From: Promethearchaeota archaeon
GTDB taxonomy: Archaea; Asgardarchaeota; Lokiarchaeia; Sigyniarchaeales; SOKP01
Direction of reading: 5' to 3'
Assembly: GCA_048941015.1 (NCBI GenBank)
Contig: JBHLNZ010000023.1
Coordinates: 1 to 45,223, forward strand
DNA length: 45,223 bases
Shown: piece after piece, positions 6,107 to 45,223 of the stretch
Layout: each line of letters begins with the position of its first letter
Position numbering within the stretch: position 1 is the stretch's first letter
Translations under genes and position numbers: made by a program
The notes under the pieces: generated by a model
Told to the model about the DNA's origin: nothing
The model's database searches: none
Seen by the model: only the letters and a program-made list of their open reading frames with translations

Positions 6107-8668
6107 TTACTCTCCTTTTACAATTTTTTTACATAAATTTACCCCTAATCCTGTTTTTCTATTAAGATTATATATATTTTCTTTTTTTACCTGATTCGCA
6201 GTGTGATATCCTGCATTAAATAAAATTCGTGCCCGTACCCTTGCTACATTTACCAATCGTAGCACCAAATCAAACAGTTCTTCTTTAATTCCATAGTGAA
6301 TTCGAACCTTTAAAGTTTCACACATTTCTGCGATTTTAATCATCCTATCTTGAAGATCCATACCAGTTTCACTTAAATACATTGCAATAATACCAATAAA
6401 GGTAATTATTCTTTCTAAATTATCGCGTATTGTATATAGATCACCTGCCATTATATTATACCGCTCTATAATTGTTTCAATCGGTTCTTCGTCTGCCCAT
6501 TCCAGTATAGGTTGAAGAAGATTATAATTTCGTTCTCTTCCTTCCGCAATAAGGATGTCAAAGGCTTCCTTAACAATATCCTGAAATGAGTCCATTTCTA
6601 CATTCTCTAATTTCTGGCGAATTAATACGCCTGATACAGGATATAAATATAACCGTATAATAAGCTTTCCGAACTGGGAGCATTTAAGTGTCCTATCATC
6701 ATTTTTTAAGATTAATCCCTTTTCAAATAAATAATTAAGGATATATTGGTTCTTTACAGATTTCGGAATGATTGAATCAACATATTTCTGAAAAGAGATA
6801 TCAGGAATTTTGACAAGGTGAAGTAAAAAGAGAGTTATATGGTCACAAAAAACAAAACTAAACTCATCATTAGCATAATTATCAGAAATACCATTCTTAA
6901 ATCCACATGAGCAACGTATTCCGTTTTCAATGCTAAATTCACAGAAATAGACTCCAAAAGAAGTTTTTACATAACCTGCAATTATATTATTATTTAGCTG
7001 AGAAACTTTTACTTGGCTTTGGTTGCTTCTTAATTCCTTCACCTTTTTTAAGTCAGCATGCAACTTTAGTATATTAATAGGAGTAATTTCCTTAATGAGC
7101 AAAAACTGGTCAACGGGAATGTTCTGTCCCTTCAATTTATTTTGTATTATATACCAAAAATATGTTTTCCTGAAAAAATCCTTTAATTTCTCAATGGTAA
7201 TACGTTTATCTTCATATATTCGCAATAAGACTTGTTCTTTTAAGGTATTGATTTTATTTAATCCAGAGACAAGCTCATTATATTTTGGAGTGTAAAATTG
7301 TTCTTCGATACCTTCTTGAAAGTAATGATCTTCTACCCAATTTCTCTCCTCTACATCGCTAACTAGAATAATTCCATACCCAATTGAATCTAATCCAGGC
7401 CTTCCTGCTCGGCCTAAACATTGAAAAACCTCATTTGCCGAAAAAGGACGGAAAAATGAAAATCCATCCCCATTTTCAAAATAACCTTTAAAACATTTTA
7501 TATTGTGTCCAGAAGTAATAAACTTTTTAAAATCCCGTAAGATGACTACTCTAGCAGGGAGATTTATACCTGCACTGAGCGTCGTAGTACAACAAATTAC
7601 TTTTAGTAATCGTTTGCGAAATGAATCTTCCACTAATTTTCGCTCTTTTGGAAGCAAACCCGCATGATGAAAAGCAATCCCATGCTTAATTACTTTTTTA
7701 AGTTCATTGCTTCCTCCTTTAATCTTGTTAATACTTGCTTCCAACCTTTTGCATGTTTTCTTCTCTAAATCAGATAAAAAATTTTTGACTAAGTGTTTAA
7801 GATTTTGAGCTGTCTGTTGAGCGGATTTTCTTTTATTCAAAAATATTAAAACTTGTCCTTTTTTCTCCATGGTAGATCTTATAATCTTTTTTATAGTCGA
7901 ATTCTTATTTTGTGTTACCTCAATTTTATAATGAAGGGGTACAGGACGATCTTCCGATGTTATGAGGTATGTCTTATTACCTAATGAAGAAAGCCATTGA
8001 TTAAAGAATTCGGGATTAGCAATAGTAGCAGATAAACCTAAAATTTGAGGTTTATTTAAAAACTCATTAAGCCGAACAATTAGAGACTCCAATCGTGGAC
8101 CTCTATCCGACTCCCCTATGATATGGATCTCATCGATAATTAATGTTGAGATGTTAAAAATCCAATCTTTATCATAGAAATTTCTTAAGATAGAATCCAT
8201 TTTTTCATATGTTGTAATAATAATATCTGCTTTTTCCAATTTGGAGTCATCAACATCATAATCTCCTACTGAAAGTTCAACATTTATACCAAACCGTTCA
8301 TAACTATTTTTGAAATGAAGATATTTTTCGGTAGCAAGAGCTTTAAAGGGGACTAAATAGACACTCTTCCCAAAATTTTGAAACACATTATGAACAGCGC
8401 ATATTTCTCCAATAAGAGTCTTACCACTCCCAGAAGGGGCACAAACTAAAAAAGATTTTCGAAAAAAAAGACCATTTTTTATAGCTTCCTTTTGAATTTT
8501 ACGGAGTTTAAAGATTCTTTGCTCAAATAAAACTCGTTGTATACGTTCATCCAGGATATATTTAAATATCTTTTCGTCTTGAGTTGAATCTTCTTTCTCA
8601 ATAAACTTTGTTATGGTTATTCTCTTCTCACCTATTATCCTCTTTTGAATATAATAGCTTGCAATCAT
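6107..8668 (-). CDS. hel308: Hel308/Ski2-like SF2 helicase with inserted SWIM-type Zn finger
   Basis: APSGSGKT, TTYEKMDS, DEIH, GLSATIAN, AFHHAGL, TTTLSAGINLP, QCLGRAGRPGLD, ratchet/HhH C-terminus (RVRARILFNAG). Insert CSCG-x19-FCDH. Confidence 0.85.
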   Translation of the reverse strand: MIASYYIQKRIIGEKRITITKFIEKEDSTQDEKIFKYILDERIQRVLFEQRIFKLRKIQKEAIKNGLFFRKSFLVCAPSGSGKTLIGEICAVHNVFQNFGKSVYLVPFKALATEKYLHFKNSYERFGINVELSVGDYDVDDSKLEKADIIITTYEKMDSILRNFYDKDWIFNISTLIIDEIHIIGESDRGPRLESLIVRLNEFLNKPQILGLSATIANPEFFNQWLSSLGNKTYLITSEDRPVPLHYKIEVTQNKNSTIKKIIRSTMEKKGQVLIFLNKRKSAQQTAQNLKHLVKNFLSDLEKKTCKRLEASINKIKGGSNELKKVIKHGIAFHHAGLLPKERKLVEDSFRKRLLKVICCTTTLSAGINLPARVVILRDFKKFITSGHNIKCFKGYFENGDGFSFFRPFSANEVFQCLGRAGRPGLDSIGYGIILVSDVEERNWVEDHYFQEGIEEQFYTPKYNELVSGLNKINTLKEQVLLRIYEDKRITIEKLKDFFRKTYFWYIIQNKLKGQNIPVDQFLLIKEITPINILKLHADLKKVKELRSNQSQVKVSQLNNNIIAGYVKTSFGVYFCEFSIENGIRCSCGFKNGISDNYANDEFSFVFCDHITLFLLHLVKIPDISFQKYVDSIIPKSVKNQYILNYLFEKGLILKNDDRTLKCSQFGKLIIRLYLYPVSGVLIRQKLENVEMDSFQDIVKEAFDILIAEGRERNYNLLQPILEWADEEPIETIIERYNIMAGDLYTIRDNLERIITFIGIIAMYLSETGMDLQDRMIKIAEMCETLKVRIHYGIKEELFDLVLRLVNVARVRARILFNAGYHTANQVKKENIYNLNRKTGLGVNLCKKIVKGE

Positions 8669-8765
8669 TTAAAGAAAAAAGAGTCCTGAGAATTACATTA
8701 ATTTTTTGTTCTTCTCGTAATATTTTTTCTTTAAATATTTTTAAATATATTGCTCTCTGATTCCT

Positions 8766-9992
8766 ATGACAGGTACTAATGAACGCCAAATGGAAAAAAA
8801 ATATGATTTGAATAATACTCGTAACTTTATCAGTGAACATTTTACATCTGAAATTTCTTCAGAAAAGGTAAAAGAAACTTCTAAAACCAATAATATTGCC
8901 TATTTAGTTTCTAATATAATACAAGATATGGGTTATTATTTAATTCCTCAACAACATCGTAAACAATATCCTCTTGATTTACTTTCCTTTCGAATATTAG
9001 AAATTAATGAAAAAGTATCTGTTATTTTGTTAATTCCTATAATTATTGATACCAATCACTTAGATATATTTGTTTCTGAACAGACCATTAGATATGATAC
9101 CAAAGATCATACAAAACTTAATCCTTATGCACAGCAACTTGTTCGTGTTGCTGAAGTCTTATTTGAAGAATTAGTTATGGAACACCATTTTTTCCAAATA
9201 CTTAATAATTCATTAGATACGCCTATAACCATTGAAAAAACTATTGAACAAAAACCTCTTTATTTTCACTCAGATAATATGGAATACAAATTGAGAATAG
9301 ATCCAATTATAGTAAAGGAAAAGCCTCCCTTATTTTCAGAAAAAACGCTTTCCTTCGCTTATCAGCGTCATTCTAATCTTCATGTTATTGCGTTAAATCA
9401 AATTTCCAATTTATTAGAATTTTTGGAGCAGAAATACATCATTCTTGAAAGTTTGGAAAAAAAAAGTAATATAAAAAATTCTTATGAACCGTTAAAAGGG
9501 AGATATTCTCGTTACTTTCAATGGATGCAACTACCTTTTATTGGATATTTAGTTCTGTTTGGAATTATCTTATTATCTAACTTCCCTTCGCTCACCAATA
9601 TAATGATTAGTCTAGGTTATGCTGCTATGGGTGTATATATTTTCTCTTCAGGTTTTCTTTATTCCTTGATTTTTCGAGAAAAAATTAAAATAGCTAAAGA
9701 ATTTTTAACTCCCTTTCATAAAAAAATTCTTAATATCAGTGATGAAGAATTATTCCTAATAAGTGAAGGCTTAAATCCTGAATATCTAGAACAACTTGGA
9801 TATGAATGTTTTGGAAAAGAACATTCTTATAAAACATTAGATGAATTGGAACAAAAAAAAATTGAAAAAGAAATTAATAATAGACCCATTACTATCGAAA
9901 AAAAGGTGGATGAACTCTACGAGCCAAAAGAATCCACCCAAGCTCTTCATAAGAGTATAATTGAGAAATATAGCTCATTTTTGGATGATTAA
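8766..9992 (+). CDS. hypothetical membrane protein (2 TM helices)
   Basis: 408-aa ORF with two hydrophobic segments at about aa 255-303. Divergent from hel308. Confidence 0.75.
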   Translation: MTGTNERQMEKKYDLNNTRNFISEHFTSEISSEKVKETSKTNNIAYLVSNIIQDMGYYLIPQQHRKQYPLDLLSFRILEINEKVSVILLIPIIIDTNHLDIFVSEQTIRYDTKDHTKLNPYAQQLVRVAEVLFEELVMEHHFFQILNNSLDTPITIEKTIEQKPLYFHSDNMEYKLRIDPIIVKEKPPLFSEKTLSFAYQRHSNLHVIALNQISNLLEFLEQKYIILESLEKKSNIKNSYEPLKGRYSRYFQWMQLPFIGYLVLFGIILLSNFPSLTNIMISLGYAAMGVYIFSSGFLYSLIFREKIKIAKEFLTPFHKKILNISDEELFLISEGLNPEYLEQLGYECFGKEHSYKTLDELEQKKIEKEINNRPITIEKKVDELYEPKESTQALHKSIIEKYSSFLDD

Positions 9993-39798: not shown

Positions 39799-40056
39799 TT
39801 ATTTCTGGGAATTTTTATTTTTGAATATCTTACTTAAATTCTCAGCAAGTTCATTACCCATGTCAAAAAAGTTCTTCATTGAATTATAGAATAAATCGCC
39901 TATTATTTCTCCTAAATCTTTTTCAGATTTTGGCGGTTTTTCTAACCTTTCGGAAGAATTTATTTCTTTAATAAGTTCTTCCTTTTTCTTTTCTAATTCG
40001 GTATTTAGTTCTTCTAAACTATTATGAATCTCTTCATAATGTTGGTTGTTTTCCAT
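39799..40056 (-). CDS. small coiled-coil/amphipathic helix protein
   Basis: 85 aa, AGGAGG RBS, last gene of the activase operon. Confidence 0.7.
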   Translation of the reverse strand: MENNQHYEEIHNSLEELNTELEKKKEELIKEINSSERLEKPPKSEKDLGEIIGDLFYNSMKNFFDMGNELAENLSKIFKNKNSQK

Positions 40057-40079
40057 AAAAATAACCTCCTTTCTCTTTT

Positions 40080-40766
40080 TTATTCAATATCTGGTTGAAT
40101 TTTAAGGGAATCGATGATCTTTAAAATATCTTCAGCAAGTTCATATCTTTGAGCTCTATATTTTTCGCGATTCATATTTTTCTCAACTGCTAATGGTGTT
40201 CCAATTTTCACCCGTATGCCATCGGCATCAATGATGTTTAGGATCTTGGTTTTTTCGGTGTATATTGCTAATGGAATTATTGGAGCATCACCAGCAACTG
40301 CAAACTTGATGATTCCTGCCATCGCTTTCAATTGAGTTTCAGGATCCAATTTTGATTCTGGAGTCATCGCCACTAAATCGCCTACTTCATTAAGATAACG
40401 AAAAACCATATCAATCGGTTCAGTGTCATCTTTATCTATCGTGCTTCTAAACATTCCAAGATTTTTAAGCACAGGACCATAGATCTGATGCTTCATTAAT
40501 TTATGATGCACCATAAAATGAATTCTGCGTCCTGTAACTTGACTTATAATTGCCATGTCTCTTAAAGCATTATCACTAATTGTGGTTAAAATTGCTTTTC
40601 CTCTTATTGGAATATTTTCTTTCCCATCTATTTTCAGATCAGTAAATAATTGTAGACCTAATCCACTTATCCCTTTTACAGCCCCATAAAGAAGCTCTTG
40701 TATAGTATCTTTCCCTACAAGTTTTTCTTTTCCTTTCGTTTCTGGTTCTTGACTTATTTCAGCCAT
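40080..40766 (-). CDS. PlsC/LPLAT-fold acyltransferase-like protein with degenerate HxxxxD motif
   Basis: IDGKENIP.RG.AIL, IHFM....L, MTPES (FPEG position), APIIPLAI, VKIGTP. The NHxSxxD motif reads TISDNALRD. Confidence 0.75.
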   Translation of the reverse strand: MAEISQEPETKGKEKLVGKDTIQELLYGAVKGISGLGLQLFTDLKIDGKENIPIRGKAILTTISDNALRDMAIISQVTGRRIHFMVHHKLMKHQIYGPVLKNLGMFRSTIDKDDTEPIDMVFRYLNEVGDLVAMTPESKLDPETQLKAMAGIIKFAVAGDAPIIPLAIYTEKTKILNIIDADGIRVKIGTPLAVEKNMNREKYRAQRYELAEDILKIIDSLKIQPDIE

Positions 40767-40789
40767 AATTTTTCACTTTTTTTAAATTT

Positions 40790-40984
40790 TTATAATTTAT
40801 CTATAAAATCATTTACTTCTTCCATCCGCCTATCATAATATTCTTTTAACTCTTTTTCAGAGACGAATGACGGTATAACTTTTTCTAATAAAAAATCAAA
40901 TATAGTTGATAATTTAGCTTTATGTTGTATAGTTTCGAGAAACTCTTCTCCAATGCCCCTTAACTGTTTAAAAAATTCTGCCAT
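40790..40984 (-). CDS. small amphipathic-helix protein
   Basis: 64 aa, tightly packed inside the operon. Confidence 0.65.
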   Translation of the reverse strand: MAEFFKQLRGIGEEFLETIQHKAKLSTIFDFLLEKVIPSFVSEKELKEYYDRRMEEVNDFIDKL

Positions 40985-41003
40985 TTTCTTTAAGATACCT
41001 TTT

Positions 41004-42029
41004 TTATGTTAATTGATCCCATTTACCGCATCTACTGCCCCAACGGGCTATGATTTTATTACCTTCTTGAGGCATCTTTACCTGAACAATCTCACAATTA
41101 TTAGGGCAATCACCGCAATGGAATGCCGAAGTGGTGAATTCAATATCTGATACCTCAAGTCCACGAAACAATGTTTGATGCTCATGTTCAATATAATAGT
41201 CTCTAACAAGAATAGACATACCTAATGCACCCATCAAGACATTATATTTCGGCACGATTACTTTACAATCGAGATGCCTCTCGAATGCTTGTATAATTCC
41301 CTTATTATAAGATACTCCTCCTTGAAATACTATAGGTTCTTCCAATTCTTTACCTTTTCCAACATTATTCATATAGTTCCTGACTAATGAATCACATAAT
41401 CCTGCAATTATGTCTTCTTTCGAATATCCCGCATTTTGTTTGTGGATCATATCTGATTCCGCAAATACAGTACATCTACCAGCAATACTTACAGGATTTC
41501 TTGATCGAACTGCATAATCACCAAATTCTTCTATGGGAATACCAAGTCTAGCAGCTTGATGATCGAGAAATGAGCCTGTGCCTGCTGCACAAACAGAATT
41601 CATAGCAAAATCTACGATAATTCCATCACGTAAAATAATTATTTTGGAATCTTGACCTCCAATTTCTAGAATTGTCCGAACATCGGGATACATAGACTGG
41701 GTAGCAACAGCATGAGCAATAATCTCAGTTTTAGCAAGATCACCCCCTACAATAGCTTTAGTTAAATATCGTGCAGAACCAGTTGTGCCACAACAACGTA
41801 TAGTATACTCTTGTAATGTTTCACTATCTTGTATTTTAGTTCGTAGTTGTGCCATTCCCGCTTTTGCTGAATCAATAGGAGAACCTCTATTACGCAAGAA
41901 CACGCTAGTGAGTACGTTTCCATCAATATCCATTAAAACAAATTTGCAACTAACACTCCCGATATCGATTCCAAGGAATGCATCTTTTTTCTCTGCTTCT
42001 ACTTTTACTTTATCTGATACTTGTACCAA
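41004..42029 (-). CDS. CoA-substrate enzyme activase (ASKHA ATPase, HgdC/BadF-BcrAD family) with C-terminal Cys cluster
   Basis: GIDIGSVS.K, EIGGQDSK, MNSVCAAGTGSFL, RCTVFAESD, FQGGV, C.DCPNNC...RC. Confidence 0.92.
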   Translation of the reverse strand: MVQVSDKVKVEAEKKDAFLGIDIGSVSCKFVLMDIDGNVLTSVFLRNRGSPIDSAKAGMAQLRTKIQDSETLQEYTIRCCGTTGSARYLTKAIVGGDLAKTEIIAHAVATQSMYPDVRTILEIGGQDSKIIILRDGIIVDFAMNSVCAAGTGSFLDHQAARLGIPIEEFGDYAVRSRNPVSIAGRCTVFAESDMIHKQNAGYSKEDIIAGLCDSLVRNYMNNVGKGKELEEPIVFQGGVSYNKGIIQAFERHLDCKVIVPKYNVLMGALGMSILVRDYYIEHEHQTLFRGLEVSDIEFTTSAFHCGDCPNNCEIVQVKMPQEGNKIIARWGSRCGKWDQLT

Positions 42030-42040
42030 TAATTTTCACC

Positions 42041-43228
42041 TTATTGTGTTTGAATTAATTGATAACATTCATTATAGAAGAGATCCCCATAGTGTGGATA
42101 TATTTTTTTCTTCCCATTTGCTATGAATTCTGGTGTATTTTTTATTTCCTGATCACGTCGGGTATTCATAAGATCTACAAAAGCTTCTAAACGGGTTCGA
42201 AAACCTTCCATTCCCGATTGTTCATCAAATGAAAAATAAATAATGGGTAAATCATATAATTTTTTTAATTTATTTGTTATTATTGTTCTTGCAGTGACTT
42301 CTGGCATACAAGTAAATGGGTATTGGTGAACAAAACCATCAAATCCTGATTTTGCTTTATCAATATATTCTCCAATAACCCATTGGCATTCTCCTCCAAT
42401 ATCCATCGGGACGTAAGGTTTTGATAAATGTTCAAGCCACTTTCGGTGATAATTTAAATGAAATTTATGTACAACCCAATCATAAAGACTTAAATTCTGA
42501 TGAATTTCTACTCCCATTTCACCAAGTTTTCGCCTAATATCTAAATTAACGTAAGGTTCTAAGCTGATATGAATCTCTCCTGATAATCCTACCTTAAGGG
42601 GTGTTAGTGAGTTATCCACATCTATAGAATTAAAATCTTGCTTTATTATGTTCTTAAAGTTTCTTAATTCTTTAAGAGTATTTGACTCATCAAGCTTAAT
42701 CAATAAGTTTTTAACTACTTCGGTTGTATCCCCCTGTTTGCATTCATAAGCACGGAAAATTCCTTCTGCAGTTTGGATATCATTTAATAATTTTGCTTTT
42801 TTCAAGAAAAATATTACTGCTTTTACAAATTTGGAATAAATAAATAAATCTCTTCTCCCGCTCAATTCTTGAAGAGTTTTAACCCAGTGAAATTCTAATA
42901 AATCTGCTTGATCTAATGGAATAATCCTGATATTCTTATAACCCATATCCCTCAAAATACGCTCTTGAACGCTTGCATAAAACCCAAACCGGCAAGGACC
43001 ACAATCTATAGCCATGACCAAGGTATCTGCTCCTTTCTTAATTGAACTTACAAAATCTCCAATGGTAGCCTTAAAAGGGAAACAAACAAATTCTGGACTA
43101 TATTTTACTCCAATCTTTACCGCTTCACGATTAGTAGGATCTGGAAGTACAACTTCTAAATCCAAGGCTGTAAACAAAGTTTTGAAGGCAACCCAGTTTG
43201 GCCCCATATTAGGAAATGAAATCAACAT
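42041..43228 (-). CDS. activase-associated reductase/2-hydroxyacyl-CoA dehydratase-like subunit (DUF2229/PlsR-like)
   Basis: SFPNMG, SPEFVCFPFK, GPCRFGFY, GEI, PFTCMPE, DEQSG.EG.RTRLEAF.DL. Confidence 0.85.
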   Translation of the reverse strand: MLISFPNMGPNWVAFKTLFTALDLEVVLPDPTNREAVKIGVKYSPEFVCFPFKATIGDFVSSIKKGADTLVMAIDCGPCRFGFYASVQERILRDMGYKNIRIIPLDQADLLEFHWVKTLQELSGRRDLFIYSKFVKAVIFFLKKAKLLNDIQTAEGIFRAYECKQGDTTEVVKNLLIKLDESNTLKELRNFKNIIKQDFNSIDVDNSLTPLKVGLSGEIHISLEPYVNLDIRRKLGEMGVEIHQNLSLYDWVVHKFHLNYHRKWLEHLSKPYVPMDIGGECQWVIGEYIDKAKSGFDGFVHQYPFTCMPEVTARTIITNKLKKLYDLPIIYFSFDEQSGMEGFRTRLEAFVDLMNTRRDQEIKNTPEFIANGKKKIYPHYGDLFYNECYQLIQTQ

Positions 43229-43503
43229 TTAAAGAGTATCTCCTCAGCAGTATTTACGTTTTGACAGATGCTATTTAATTTTTATATTTTACTTAAGTAA
43301 TTATTTGATTAAATAACACAGTCTGATATAAAAAATTACCCATTAAAAACAGATTCTCAAAAGTATGTTTATTTTATTAAAAATAATAGAAATTTTTACT
43401 AAAATAATGAAATCATCAAAATGACAATATTATTTTATTACTTTCGACGTTTCTTGTTAATTATCACTGAATGGTAATCCTATAACTTTCATATCTCGCA
43501 TAA

Positions 43504-43668
43504 TCAAGTTCTGAAGGGAAAACAGATGAACTCAGGGCTTTTTTTCACGCCAATCTTCACATCGTTACGATTCGTGGGATCTGGTAGAATCACCTCGGTA
43601 TCCATACACTCGAAGAAAGTCTTGAACGCCGGCTACGAATTGCCCATATTTGGAAAAGAAACTTTTAT
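43504..43668 (-). pseudogene. truncated paralogue of the downstream reductase-like gene
   Basis: IKVSFPNMGNS*PAFKTFFECMDTEVILPDPTNRNDVKIGVKKSPEFICFPFRT* aligns with the N-terminus of 42041..43228. TAG (43633-43635) sits at the Trp position, and the frame ends at TGA. Confidence 0.85.
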
Positions 43669-43682
43669 AATAAAATAGCTTC

Positions 43683-45017
43683 TCAAAGGTTAAAAAGAGA
43701 TCCGATACTAAAAAACGAATTTCTTGAAAAAAACTCGAGTCCATTCTTAACGGCGAATCCTAAATCTAATTTCTTTGATGGATTCAGCATTGTTAAAACC
43801 TTTGACATTGGTGTTTCAATACTAGACACGAAATATTCAAAATTAGATTTCGGCTTAAAATATATATTTTTTATTTCATCAGGGACCACATACTTGACAT
43901 CTCTAAATAAGGGATTACTTTTCTTGTTGCTAACCATTAAATCATGAAATGCTTCGATTCTTGTTCTAAGTCCTTCAAAACCAGAACTTCCATCAAGACT
44001 AAAATGAATGTGGGGCATGTAAAACTTCTCCATATTTTTCTCGGCTTCTAACATTCCCATTAGGGATATTTCAGGCATGCAAGTAAATGGGAATATATGG
44101 ACAAAACCATCAAAACCTTTTTCTTGAGACTCAAGATAACTTCCCATGTTCCATACTGCTTCTCCACCAATATCCATTGGAATATACTTTCTTGCACTAT
44201 GTTCAAGCCGTCTTCTTCGTTTGCTGGCGTCAAGTTTGTACATGACCCAATCAAAGACATCATACTGCTTGTGAACCTCGATACCCATGACGCCTAATTC
44301 TCCCATCAGATCATAATTAACCCATTTCTCCAACATGACTTGGATTTCCCCAGTATAACAAACCCTCAAAGGTTCCATTTCCTTGTCAATAGGAATCTTG
44401 CGAAAATTTTCATCTATCGTTCTATCAAAATTAGATAATTTCATCAAATTATTTTCGTTATCAAGTAAATTCATCAAAGTATGAACTACTTTGGTAGTCA
44501 TTGCTTTGTTTTTTTCTCGACATCTAACAAGTCCTTCAATATGGCTTATTCTTTCAACATAGTATGCTTTGATCAAGAACAAGAGTGTGTTTCTTAAAAT
44601 TTTATAGTCATCAAATTTTCTTCCTGTTCTTTTTTCTAAATCACGAAATACCATTAGCCATTCAAGATTTCTGAAATCATCTTGACTTAGATAAAACATT
44701 CTAACATCCTTGAATCCCATATTTTTCAAGATTCTTTTCTGAACGACAGCATACATTCCCGCTCGACATGGGCCGTGGTCAACAATCATCGCAAAATCTT
44801 TAACATCATAATTACGATACAGGTTTATCATTTCACCAAGAATGACTTTAAATGGAAAACATACGAATTCAGGAGAACGTTTGACTCCTTCACTAACGAT
44901 TTCAGTGTTTACTAGAGGGGGTTCAACAACTTCAATACCAGGAAGATCATGGAATAAACCTTTGAAAAAAATATAGCTCCAACCCATTCGTGAAAATGAA
45001 ACTCTAACATTTACCAT
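43683..45017 (-). CDS. second activase-associated reductase/dehydratase-like subunit (DUF2229/PlsR-like)
   Basis: SPEFVCFPFK, GPCRAGMY, GEI, PMDIGGE, PFTCMPE, RTRIEAF.DL. Confidence 0.85.
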   Translation of the reverse strand: MVNVRVSFSRMGWSYIFFKGLFHDLPGIEVVEPPLVNTEIVSEGVKRSPEFVCFPFKVILGEMINLYRNYDVKDFAMIVDHGPCRAGMYAVVQKRILKNMGFKDVRMFYLSQDDFRNLEWLMVFRDLEKRTGRKFDDYKILRNTLLFLIKAYYVERISHIEGLVRCREKNKAMTTKVVHTLMNLLDNENNLMKLSNFDRTIDENFRKIPIDKEMEPLRVCYTGEIQVMLEKWVNYDLMGELGVMGIEVHKQYDVFDWVMYKLDASKRRRRLEHSARKYIPMDIGGEAVWNMGSYLESQEKGFDGFVHIFPFTCMPEISLMGMLEAEKNMEKFYMPHIHFSLDGSSGFEGLRTRIEAFHDLMVSNKKSNPLFRDVKYVVPDEIKNIYFKPKSNFEYFVSSIETPMSKVLTMLNPSKKLDLGFAVKNGLEFFSRNSFFSIGSLFNL

Positions 45018-45223
45018 TTACCGCACCTACTATTCCATCGTGCAAATATCCTCTCATCCTTTTCTCTTCCAGTTACTCTTCTTTTATCTTCTTCCCTGAC
45101 AATGTATTTAACTGTACATCTATTTGGACAATCAGGACAGACAAACGAACCTGTAGCCAAGTTCATTTCACTAACTTTTAGGCCATGAAAAGAAGATATC
45201 TGTCCATTTACATGTTCCTTTGC
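45011..45223 (-). CDS. C-terminus of a second CoA-activase (partial, runs off the window)
   Basis: AKEHVNGQISSFHGLKV...FVCPDCPNRC...ARWNSRCGKW*, homologous to the C-terminus of 41004..42029. Overlaps the next start. Confidence 0.85.
   Translation of the reverse strand, partial: AKEHVNGQISSFHGLKVSEMNLATGSFVCPDCPNRCTVKYIVREEDKRRVTGREKDERIFARWNSRCGKW

Follow-up and report, generated by a model that had tools for sequence, protein, structure and literature searches.

A conserved Lokiarchaeial operon joins PlsC-family acyltransferases to a split ATP-driven Fe-S enzyme of the DUF2229 branch

The anaerobic plasmalogen synthase PlsA/PlsR occurs as a two-gene form in C. perfringens and as a single-gene form in Enterococcus, Lactococcus and Bifidobacterium. 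PlsA/PlsR and the glycerol ester reductase Ger, described from Thermotoga maritima (Tmari_0479) and Desulfatibacillum alkenivorans (PMC13159169), are the only characterised DUF2229 enzymes, and both are reductases of lipid esters (PMC13159169, PMC12838417). Ger has been described with the architecture Act-Act-A-B, and Ger homologues have already been reported in Lokiarchaeota and Heimdallarchaeota by a search with a threshold of at least 30% query coverage (PMC13159169). The operon described here is probably not what was detected there, because its split subunits of 340-395 aa cannot reach 30% coverage. Reviews mention PlsC homologues of Lokiarchaea with no function assigned (PMC9385802). New here is that PlsC homologues and Ger-like homologues share one conserved operon, which holds all PlsC-family domains of the genome (three PF01553 domains, all in the present gene cluster).

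The window, that is, the whole stretch of 45,223 nucleotides that was analysed, is an entire contig, hence the gene that is cut at position 45223. The region of interest is the downstream portion of a long Lokiarchaeial operon, truncated at the contig end. The sequence-only reading had listed eight elements here, and their coordinates, their common minus-strand orientation and the gene order were confirmed. In relatives, the upstream part of the core set consists of a gene for a HAD phosphatase, followed by a double PlsC-type acyltransferase that carries both HX4D motifs, then subunit A and then subunit B; the window covers the core set from B onward. The full operon is present in three genomes of the same genus (G162, G109 and G113), and the order HAD-AT2-A-B-Act-64aa-pseudoAT-85aa is repeated in four loci (L004, L010, L012 and L068). 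The conserved neighbours in the operon are HAD, PF01553 acyltransferase and MFS genes. In the present genome, the HAD and double acyltransferase genes are located at positions 3-2346 of another contig (C136), running off its start. Subunit A falls in an assembly gap: A, the FAD-fused second A subunit (FAD::A') and the front of the second activase (activase') were not found anywhere in the assembly.

The core B-type Fe-S subunit, B (395 aa, 42041-43228), matches PF09989 with 42.4 bits, above the cut-off, over the first ~70 positions only. More than 120 homologues have 77-98% identity, and the names given by their sources (Promethearchaeota, Lokiarchaeia) agree with an Asgard origin. Cys48, Cys78 and Cys306 are invariant across 38 sequences, and subunit A likewise has three invariant cysteines; hhalign pairs A with B over the full length (probability 99.9%), which makes them paralogues. 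The AF2 model of B (pLDDT 89.8) matches 3o3m, 6eno, 8s02 and 9gai at E ~1e-7, with HadBC, DCCP and BzdNO as the best folds (TM 0.52-0.56), and no close relative of A or B was found in the PDB. B thus has the catalytic-subunit fold and the conserved cysteines of the BCR/HAD/DCCP superfamily of ATP-driven Fe-S enzymes. The second B-type gene, B' (444 aa, 43683-45017), stays below the Pfam cut-offs for both PF09989 (26.7 bits) and PF06050 (19.9 bits). The two genes had been taken for different halves of one enzyme, but they are 41% identical and encode the same subunit type, and by sequence comparison B' is paralogous to B and does not represent an A orthologue. The A and A' subunits of relatives, in contrast, match PF09989 strongly (1e-43 to 9e-46), and no A-type gene is found in the present assembly.

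The core activase (341 aa, 41004-42029) is an ATPase of the HgdC/BcrAD type (PF01869 2e-46, TIGR00241 5e-57) with a Cys-rich C-terminal tail, and it aligns best, tail included, to the second activase domain of fused proteins. At the contig end, the open-ended frame at 45011-45223 encodes the C-terminal 70 aa of activase', a Cys-rich activase tail. It matches the final 70 residues of a 343-aa PF01869 activase in G109, G162, G113 and G276 at 91-97% identity, compared to 41% identity to the tail of the core activase. A tandem pair of activase domains, as found at the N-terminus of the fused proteins, was not seen, and each system has a single free-standing activase gene. The assumption of two activases per system is thus not borne out, as the second one in the window belongs to a cassette. 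Taken together, the window carries parts of two separate three-part enzymes, each with a subunit A, a subunit B and one activase.

The cassette, ~4.8 kb in length, is placed between A and B in the present genome and comprises a FAD-domain gene fused to A' (FAD_binding_4::A'), activase' as its second gene, B' and a scrap of a B gene; its 3' end lies at 43507-45223. By blastn, this part is 88-96% identical in DNA to six other genomes, in contrast to ~75% for the adjoining 40099-43402. Third codon positions are 81-94% identical in B' versus 42-48% in the adjacent B gene, and the B' protein is 88-95% identical to copies in other species and genera. The cassette is found at different places in G276, G138 and G186. 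The near-identical DNA in different genera shows a recent spread by horizontal transfer. The scrap at the 3' end (~150 nt, 43507-43660) is a degenerate relic that covers the start of a B-type gene, about its first 50 codons. Its nucleotide identity to the 5' end of B is ~70%; by tblastn, it aligns to B residues 3-54 at 67% identity, interrupted by a stop codon and indels. The relic is missing from same-genus loci that have B' followed by B, and in G276 it corresponds to an intact 82-aa ORF after B', with 96% DNA identity continuing through the relic. The FAD domain fused to A' was also considered as an alkyl-DHAP synthase; this was rejected, as that match reaches only 3e-5 compared to 2e-19 for cytokinin dehydrogenases, with DprE1 among the best matches. 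Between the cassette and B, ~100 nt upstream of the latter, an AT-rich, TATA-like block at 43328-43352 is a candidate internal promoter. It is kept in the B'-B spacer of four genomes and occurs once in the window, with zero occurrences expected by chance. Scans for sigma-70 promoters and terminators gave sites no commoner than in shuffled sequence.

Downstream of the core activase, three further genes complete the operon. The first encodes an acidic, soluble protein of 64 aa (40790-40984) with no family match and no hydrophobic segment. Counterparts in 12 other loci are 65-96% identical, and the gene is missing where the reductase block is missing; the protein thus travels with the A-B-activase block. 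It is followed by the PlsC-fold protein (228 aa, 40080-40766), which meets the PF01553 profile with 32.9 bits (cut-off 23). The best PDB match of its AF2 model (pLDDT 81) is T. maritima PlsC (5kym, E 2.8e-7, TM 0.56-0.62), with which it shares the fold; unlike that enzyme, it is a pseudo-acyltransferase without the catalytic histidine of the HX4D motif. The histidine is replaced in 20 of 20 aligned homologues, the substitute being Ile within the family and Ser/Thr or Phe in homologues from the wider order and class, the aspartate is kept, and the motif FPEG reads TPES. HX4D is present in 136 of the 150 best library representatives for this protein and absent from the nearest ten, and the clade without the histidine is small (~9 cluster representatives below 1e-30). 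The double acyltransferase of the same operon, in contrast, keeps both HX4D and PEG motifs (TIGR00530 153 bits, cut-off 103). The last gene encodes a hydrophilic protein of 85 aa (39799-40056) with no significant family match, 41-78% identical in 8 other loci. It travels with the PlsC-fold gene: in the operons of G083 and G174, which lack the reductase, it persists at a length of 73 aa, with no such ORF listed in G249. No transmembrane segments were found in any of the proteins. This counts against ester-to-ether lipid chemistry.

The linkage of acyltransferases to the A-B-Act genes is conserved in Lokiarchaeia at the family, order and class level. Of 68 genomes in the family, 62 carry the PlsC-fold gene, and B and the PlsC-fold gene lie on one contig in 43 of the 54 genomes that have both; AT-AT-A-B-Act or tripleAT-HAD-A-B-Act arrangements are found at order and class level. 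The PlsC-family link proposed from the window holds across Lokiarchaeia but not in other Asgard families, where it was not found among up to six matches per genome; none of 79 bacterial loci has an acyltransferase neighbour. Because A-B-Act occurs without an acyltransferase elsewhere, family membership alone does not imply a lipid substrate. Three sister species (G083, G174 and G249) retain the acyltransferase genes and have no reductase block. The PlsC-fold protein had been regarded as a partner of the reductase. Its catalytic histidine is missing in every orthologue, and since the protein is kept in operons that lost the reductase, it is to be tied to the acyltransferase instead.

Our best guess, given a little less than an even chance, is that the operon enzymes convert ester lipids to ether lipids. 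By analogy with the family, an activase homodimer would spend ATP on driving a low-potential electron into the A/B Fe-S heterodimer, and the heterodimer would then reduce a carbonyl. The neighbourhood suggests as the substrate an O-acyl ester set by the adjacent acyltransferases on a glycerol or glycerol-phosphate backbone. The product would be an alkenyl or alkyl ether, as with PlsA/PlsR and Ger in bacteria. The reductase block may represent an optional tailoring step, since it is missing from some sister species that do have the acyltransferase genes. This ester-to-ether route is testable, yet it is proposed from gene neighbourhood. A point against it comes from the one cultured relative with published lipids, which may or may not carry the operon: ether cleavage released phytane and biphytanes alone (PMC7015854).

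Alternatively, the target of A, B and the activase may not be a finished glycerolipid ester. They may instead reduce or dehydrate an acyl-CoA, which would shape the donor used by the acyltransferases, or reduce an unrelated small molecule, as in the case of DCCP. Fold and C-terminal similarity are as close to DCCP (7yyl, 6eno), HadBC and BzdNO as to anything, and both in bacteria and in other Asgard families the split A-B-Act set is widespread with no acyltransferase at its side. Moreover, the acyltransferase genes function without a reductase in three sister species, and the proteins all look soluble. This explanation is nevertheless considered rather unlikely: every characterised DUF2229 enzyme is a lipid ester reductase (PMC13159169, PMC12838417), the conserved operon genes include no CoA-transferase, acyl-CoA ligase or hydroxyacid dehydrogenase, and the acyltransferase link is kept across the whole class despite gene rearrangements. 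The lack of such neighbours, with acyltransferases and a HAD phosphatase in their place, also argues against a 2-hydroxyacyl-CoA dehydratase or a benzoyl-CoA-reductase-type system for amino-acid or aromatic fermentation. Such an assignment would agree with the fold superfamily, with the HgdC-type activase and with the amino-acid fermentation of Lokiarchaeia (PMC7015854). However, PF06050 scores of 19.9 and 23.4 bits fall short of the cut-off of 28.4, and the stretch that resembles HadB in sequence spans no more than ~65 C-terminal residues (E 0.004-0.01), so that a fermentative role appears very improbable.

The same low probability applies to the sequence-only reading when it is taken literally, namely that a complete PlsA/Ger orthologue is encoded in the window in split form, as two activases plus two different reductase halves, with the lipid presented by the PlsC-fold protein. 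The domain content is superficially 2+2 and a PlsC-fold gene is adjacent. The window actually combines the core B and activase with the end of a transferred cassette, however. Both reductase-like genes are of the B type with their A-type partners off-contig, the upstream pair stems from the recently transferred cassette, relatives without the cassette have one activase, and the PlsC-fold gene persists without a reductase. One complete split enzyme can hardly be reconciled with these findings.

It is an open question why eukaryotes, whose host lineage was archaeal, possess lipids of the bacterial type. The ester-to-ether reading can be extended to the broader proposal that Lokiarchaeia make alkenyl or alkyl ether glycerolipids derived from fatty acyls by a one-operon 'acylate, then reduce' route independent of isoprenoids, supplemented by a mobile flavoprotein-fused tailoring module that is exchanged between species. 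This proposal is speculative and, as a whole, seems doubtful; if true, a bacterial-style lipid branch apart from the isoprenoids would exist in close archaeal relatives of eukaryotes. Also new are the natural variants without the reductase block and the mobile second module, which provide a defined gene set and natural 'knock-outs'.

Compared to the known systems, the operon shares with PlsA/PlsR the building blocks (activase, A-type DUF2229 and B-type parts), their linear order when fused and, by family, a probable Fe-S/ATP dependence. In contrast to the fused forms, it consists of three separate genes, A-B-Act, with one activase gene per system. Ger has a comparable domain set, two PF01869 domains plus PF09989 and PF06050 pieces, but is one protein of ~1400 aa for which no acyltransferase linkage is described (PMC13159169). 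Only four of 14 control genomes gave PF09989 matches. T. maritima, the source of Ger, and Lactococcus lactis are among these four; a characterised PlsA comes from Lactococcus cremoris (PMC13159169, PMC12838417). A kinship with PlsA/Ger, as suggested earlier, is retained insofar as the operon belongs to the DUF2229 branch and is colinear with the fused proteins: on fused proteins of 1400 aa, the alignments of Act, A and B follow the order Act-Act-A-B, at only 23-31% identity. In a subunit phylogeny of the kind called for by the sequence-only reading, an A-domain tree that contains no characterised PlsA, PlsR or Ger sequence, the Lokiarchaeial A is placed outside an SH-aLRT 99 clade of all 34 sampled fused or Act-Act-A forms. 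Orthology to PlsA/Ger therefore does not follow from this tree. HadBC with its activator and DCCP with DCCP-R have catalytic subunits of the same fold (TM 0.52-0.56) and an ATP-driven HgdC-type donor, but the sequence similarity is confined to the last ~65-75 residues, and the Lokiarchaeial operon has no CoA-transferase context. Within the A-domain tree, the Lokiarchaeial A domains group with uncharacterised split bacterial forms. Such bacterial systems, organized as A-B-Act or as an AB fusion plus Act, are found, for example, in Desulfotomaculia, Moorella and Ammonifex thiophilus; they have no acyltransferase or HAD neighbour and, in Bacillota, lie among sporulation genes that give no hint of the substrate. 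A-B-Act is common in bacteria, and the split layout is thus no Asgard peculiarity. The bacterial systems match the Lokiarchaeial set in their three genes and in gene order, are 32-39% identical to the Lokiarchaeial A and form its nearest clade in the A-domain tree.

The assembly that contains the window comprises 3.59 Mb in 144 contigs, and the window is the whole of one contig (C43). At its end, the minus strand encodes, in order, a 70-aa open-ended C-terminus of an activase (activase') with a Cys-rich tail, the Fe-S subunit B' (444 aa), a 454-bp spacer containing the degenerate start of a B-type gene (the relic, 43507-43660), the related subunit B (395 aa), a core activase of the HgdC/BcrAD type (341 aa; PF01869 2e-46, TIGR00241 5e-57), a 64-aa ORF, a PlsC-fold protein (228 aa, PF01553) and an 85-aa ORF. 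Over 384 residues, B and B' share 41% identity. The relic shares 67% identity with B residues 3-54 and carries a stop and indels, and B homologues at 77-98% identity are named Promethearchaeota or Lokiarchaeia. The ORFs, profile matches, relic alignment and homologue names show the sequence-only description to be correct.

On the long contigs of relatives, a single gene order is conserved: a HAD phosphatase (~260 aa), a double acyltransferase (554-583 aa, two PF01553 domains), A (353-359 aa, full-length DUF2229 match at about 1e-44), B, a single activase, the 64-aa gene, the PlsC-fold gene and a small ORF (63-87 aa). A and B are paralogues along their full length (hhalign probability 99.9%), each with three invariant cysteines. 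Three genomes of the same genus (G162, G109, G113) carry a second set between A and B, consisting of FAD::A' (a FAD_binding_4 domain fused to an A-type domain, 806-837 aa), activase' (343 aa at full length) and B'. In the genome of the window, the HAD and double acyltransferase genes are found within the first 2.3 kb of another contig, C136, with the acyltransferase running off the contig start; this assembly yielded neither A nor FAD::A' nor the 5' part of activase'. Most simply, C136 and C43 would be neighbours separated by ~4.4 kb of unassembled sequence.

Some loci contain additional genes. In G113, ~4.2 kb with three ORFs (L026:5160-9423) are inserted between core B and the activase; the two ORFs compared with Pfam (7400-8431 and 8531-9415) gave no match. 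Upstream, an activase::A fusion belongs to a third system (L026:17405-19000). Two relatives encode a PF03417 protein (acyl-CoA:6-APA acyltransferase/C45 family) just downstream of the operon (L003:3335-4483, L010:14416-15567), with no counterpart among the window ORFs compared with Pfam.

The upstream part of the window operon is a mobile, transferred cassette. From 43507/43672 to 45223, the window is 88-96% identical at the DNA level to six other genomes, other genera included; the remainder of the operon shows ~75% identity even within the genus. Between genomes, B' is 81-94% identical at third codon positions, versus 42-48% for the adjacent B gene. The common block spans ~4.8 kb and exactly three genes (FAD::A', activase', B'), and in G276, G138 and G186 it is located away from the core operon. 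In G276, B' is followed by an intact 82-aa ORF that is similar to the beginning of B, and the match to the window, at 96% identity, extends through the relic. Same-genus loci in which B' immediately precedes B have no relic. It is therefore a passenger of one cassette variant and not the remains of a local gene. In the A-domain tree, cassette A' is nested among Lokiarchaeial A sequences (SH-aLRT 95-100); the cassette thus originated in this lineage and later spread. The sequence-only reading had counted two activases and two reductase subunits as a split "2+2" version of PlsA/PlsR and Ger. Taken literally, this is very improbable, since B' is paralogous to B and does not correspond to A, and the upstream genes belong to the cassette.

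The FAD domain of the first cassette gene (N-terminal 470 residues; L027:9592-11001, outside the window) is of the VAO/PCMH type and has its closest matches in cytokinin dehydrogenases of plants (E 2e-19) and in DprE1. Fusions of such a domain to a DUF2229 subunit occur in just three clusters, all Lokiarchaeial. G210, a 92% complete genome of the window's family, has a B'-type match and, with the queries used, no core B or PlsC-fold gene match; it may carry the cassette without the core operon.

The acyltransferase link, proposed earlier for the PlsC-fold gene, was borne out at family, order and class level. Within the window's family, 62 of 68 genomes have the PlsC-fold gene, which is nearly absent elsewhere in the phylum sample; combining the occurrence searches for both genes, B shares a contig with it in 43 of the 54 genomes that have both. 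Order-level relatives (e.g. Ca. Harpocratesius repetitus) encode an acyltransferase, an acyltransferase-like gene, A, B and the activase, and class-level relatives a triple-acyltransferase protein, HAD, A, B and the activase, the third acyltransferase domain being homologous to the stand-alone PlsC-fold gene. One class-level operon (G237) includes a LarA-like protein with lactate racemase N- and C-terminal domains (L028:7483-8862) and a HAD protein of 490 aa. All three PF01553 domains of the window's genome lie within the cluster. The double acyltransferase retains both HX4D and both PEG motifs (TIGR00530, 153 bits). The PlsC-fold model (pLDDT 81) best matches T. maritima PlsC; the protein lacks the catalytic His. 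This residue is replaced in 20/20 homologues (Ile in the window's family, Ser/Thr or Phe at order and class level), with the Asp kept and another His, 13 residues downstream, invariant. HX4D is absent from the nearest ten library representatives and present in 136 of the best 150.

The reductase is an optional module. Three complete genomes of the same genus (G083, G174, G249) have an operon of HAD, double acyltransferase and PlsC-fold genes, to which G083 and G174 add a final ORF of ~73 aa. The operon lacks A, B, the activase and the 64-aa gene, and the rest of these genomes gave no B-type match. The 64-aa protein thus goes with the reductase, and the His-less protein, retained in reductase-less operons, with the acyltransferase, as does the 85-aa ORF in two of three. 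An optional reductase is consistent with a tailoring step, and also with other roles. In G083 and G174, the stretch between double acyltransferase and PlsC-fold genes, exactly where other species have A-B-Act-64aa, holds an ORF of ~203 aa from the PF14424 toxin-deaminase family (L122:8069-8680, L123:8314-8919).

By analogy with its family, an activase dimer would couple ATP hydrolysis to low-potential electron injection into an A/B Fe-S heterodimer. From the gene neighbourhood, this heterodimer could turn an acyl ester produced by the acyltransferases next to it into an ether, a tentative reading to which we give slightly less than even odds. A non-lipid or acyl-CoA substrate is a less probable alternative. 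Against the lipid reading, A-B-Act is widespread without acyltransferases. None of the 79 bacterial loci in a genome scan adjoins an acyltransferase gene; most have the A-B-Act order with one activase, or an AB fusion ahead of an activase, and the split layout is therefore not peculiar to Asgard archaea. In Bacillota the A-B-Act unit lies amid sporulation genes, in many of them (among bacterial loci L036-L115) within a conserved stretch with spoIIAB, sigF, spoVAD/AE, gerA, dacF and lysA. Within the Asgard archaea, B-type genes are found in the family, order and class of the window and also in two further families, which carry A-B(-Act) with up to six matches per genome and no acyltransferases beside them.

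Further points against ester-to-ether conversion are an A-domain tree unanchored by characterised PlsA or Ger, the lack of transmembrane segments in the operon proteins, and the purely isoprenoid lipids reported for the cultured strain MK-D1 (PMC7015854), which may or may not carry the operon. A fermentative dehydratase is highly unlikely, with PF06050 scores of the window proteins below the Pfam cut-off. Lokiarchaeota Ger homologues were reported in 2022 (PMC13159169) and a review notes PlsC homologues in Lokiarchaea without an assigned function (PMC9385802); no description of a joint acyltransferase-reductase operon was found in the literature.

The B model (pLDDT 89.8) matches HadBC, DCCP, BzdNO and MbdON about equally (TM 0.52-0.56), a comparable fold match for all four, and its sequence match to solved structures is confined to the last 65-75 residues. 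PF09989 matches occur in only 4 of 14 control genomes, T. maritima and Lactococcus lactis among them. In the A-domain tree, sampled without characterised PlsA or Ger sequences, all fused forms share one clade (SH-aLRT 99) with split bacterial and Asgard forms outside, the Lokiarchaeial sequences being monophyletic (SH-aLRT 100). These sequence data favour a sister subfamily without a studied member. Along proteins of 1400-1480 aa (PF01869, PF09989, PF06050), the split subunits align as Act, Act, A, B; A-B and Act-Act-A fusions also occur. Ger has the published arrangement Act, Act, A, B (PMC13159169), and PlsA two activation and two reduction domains, with parts as in Ger (PMC12838417).
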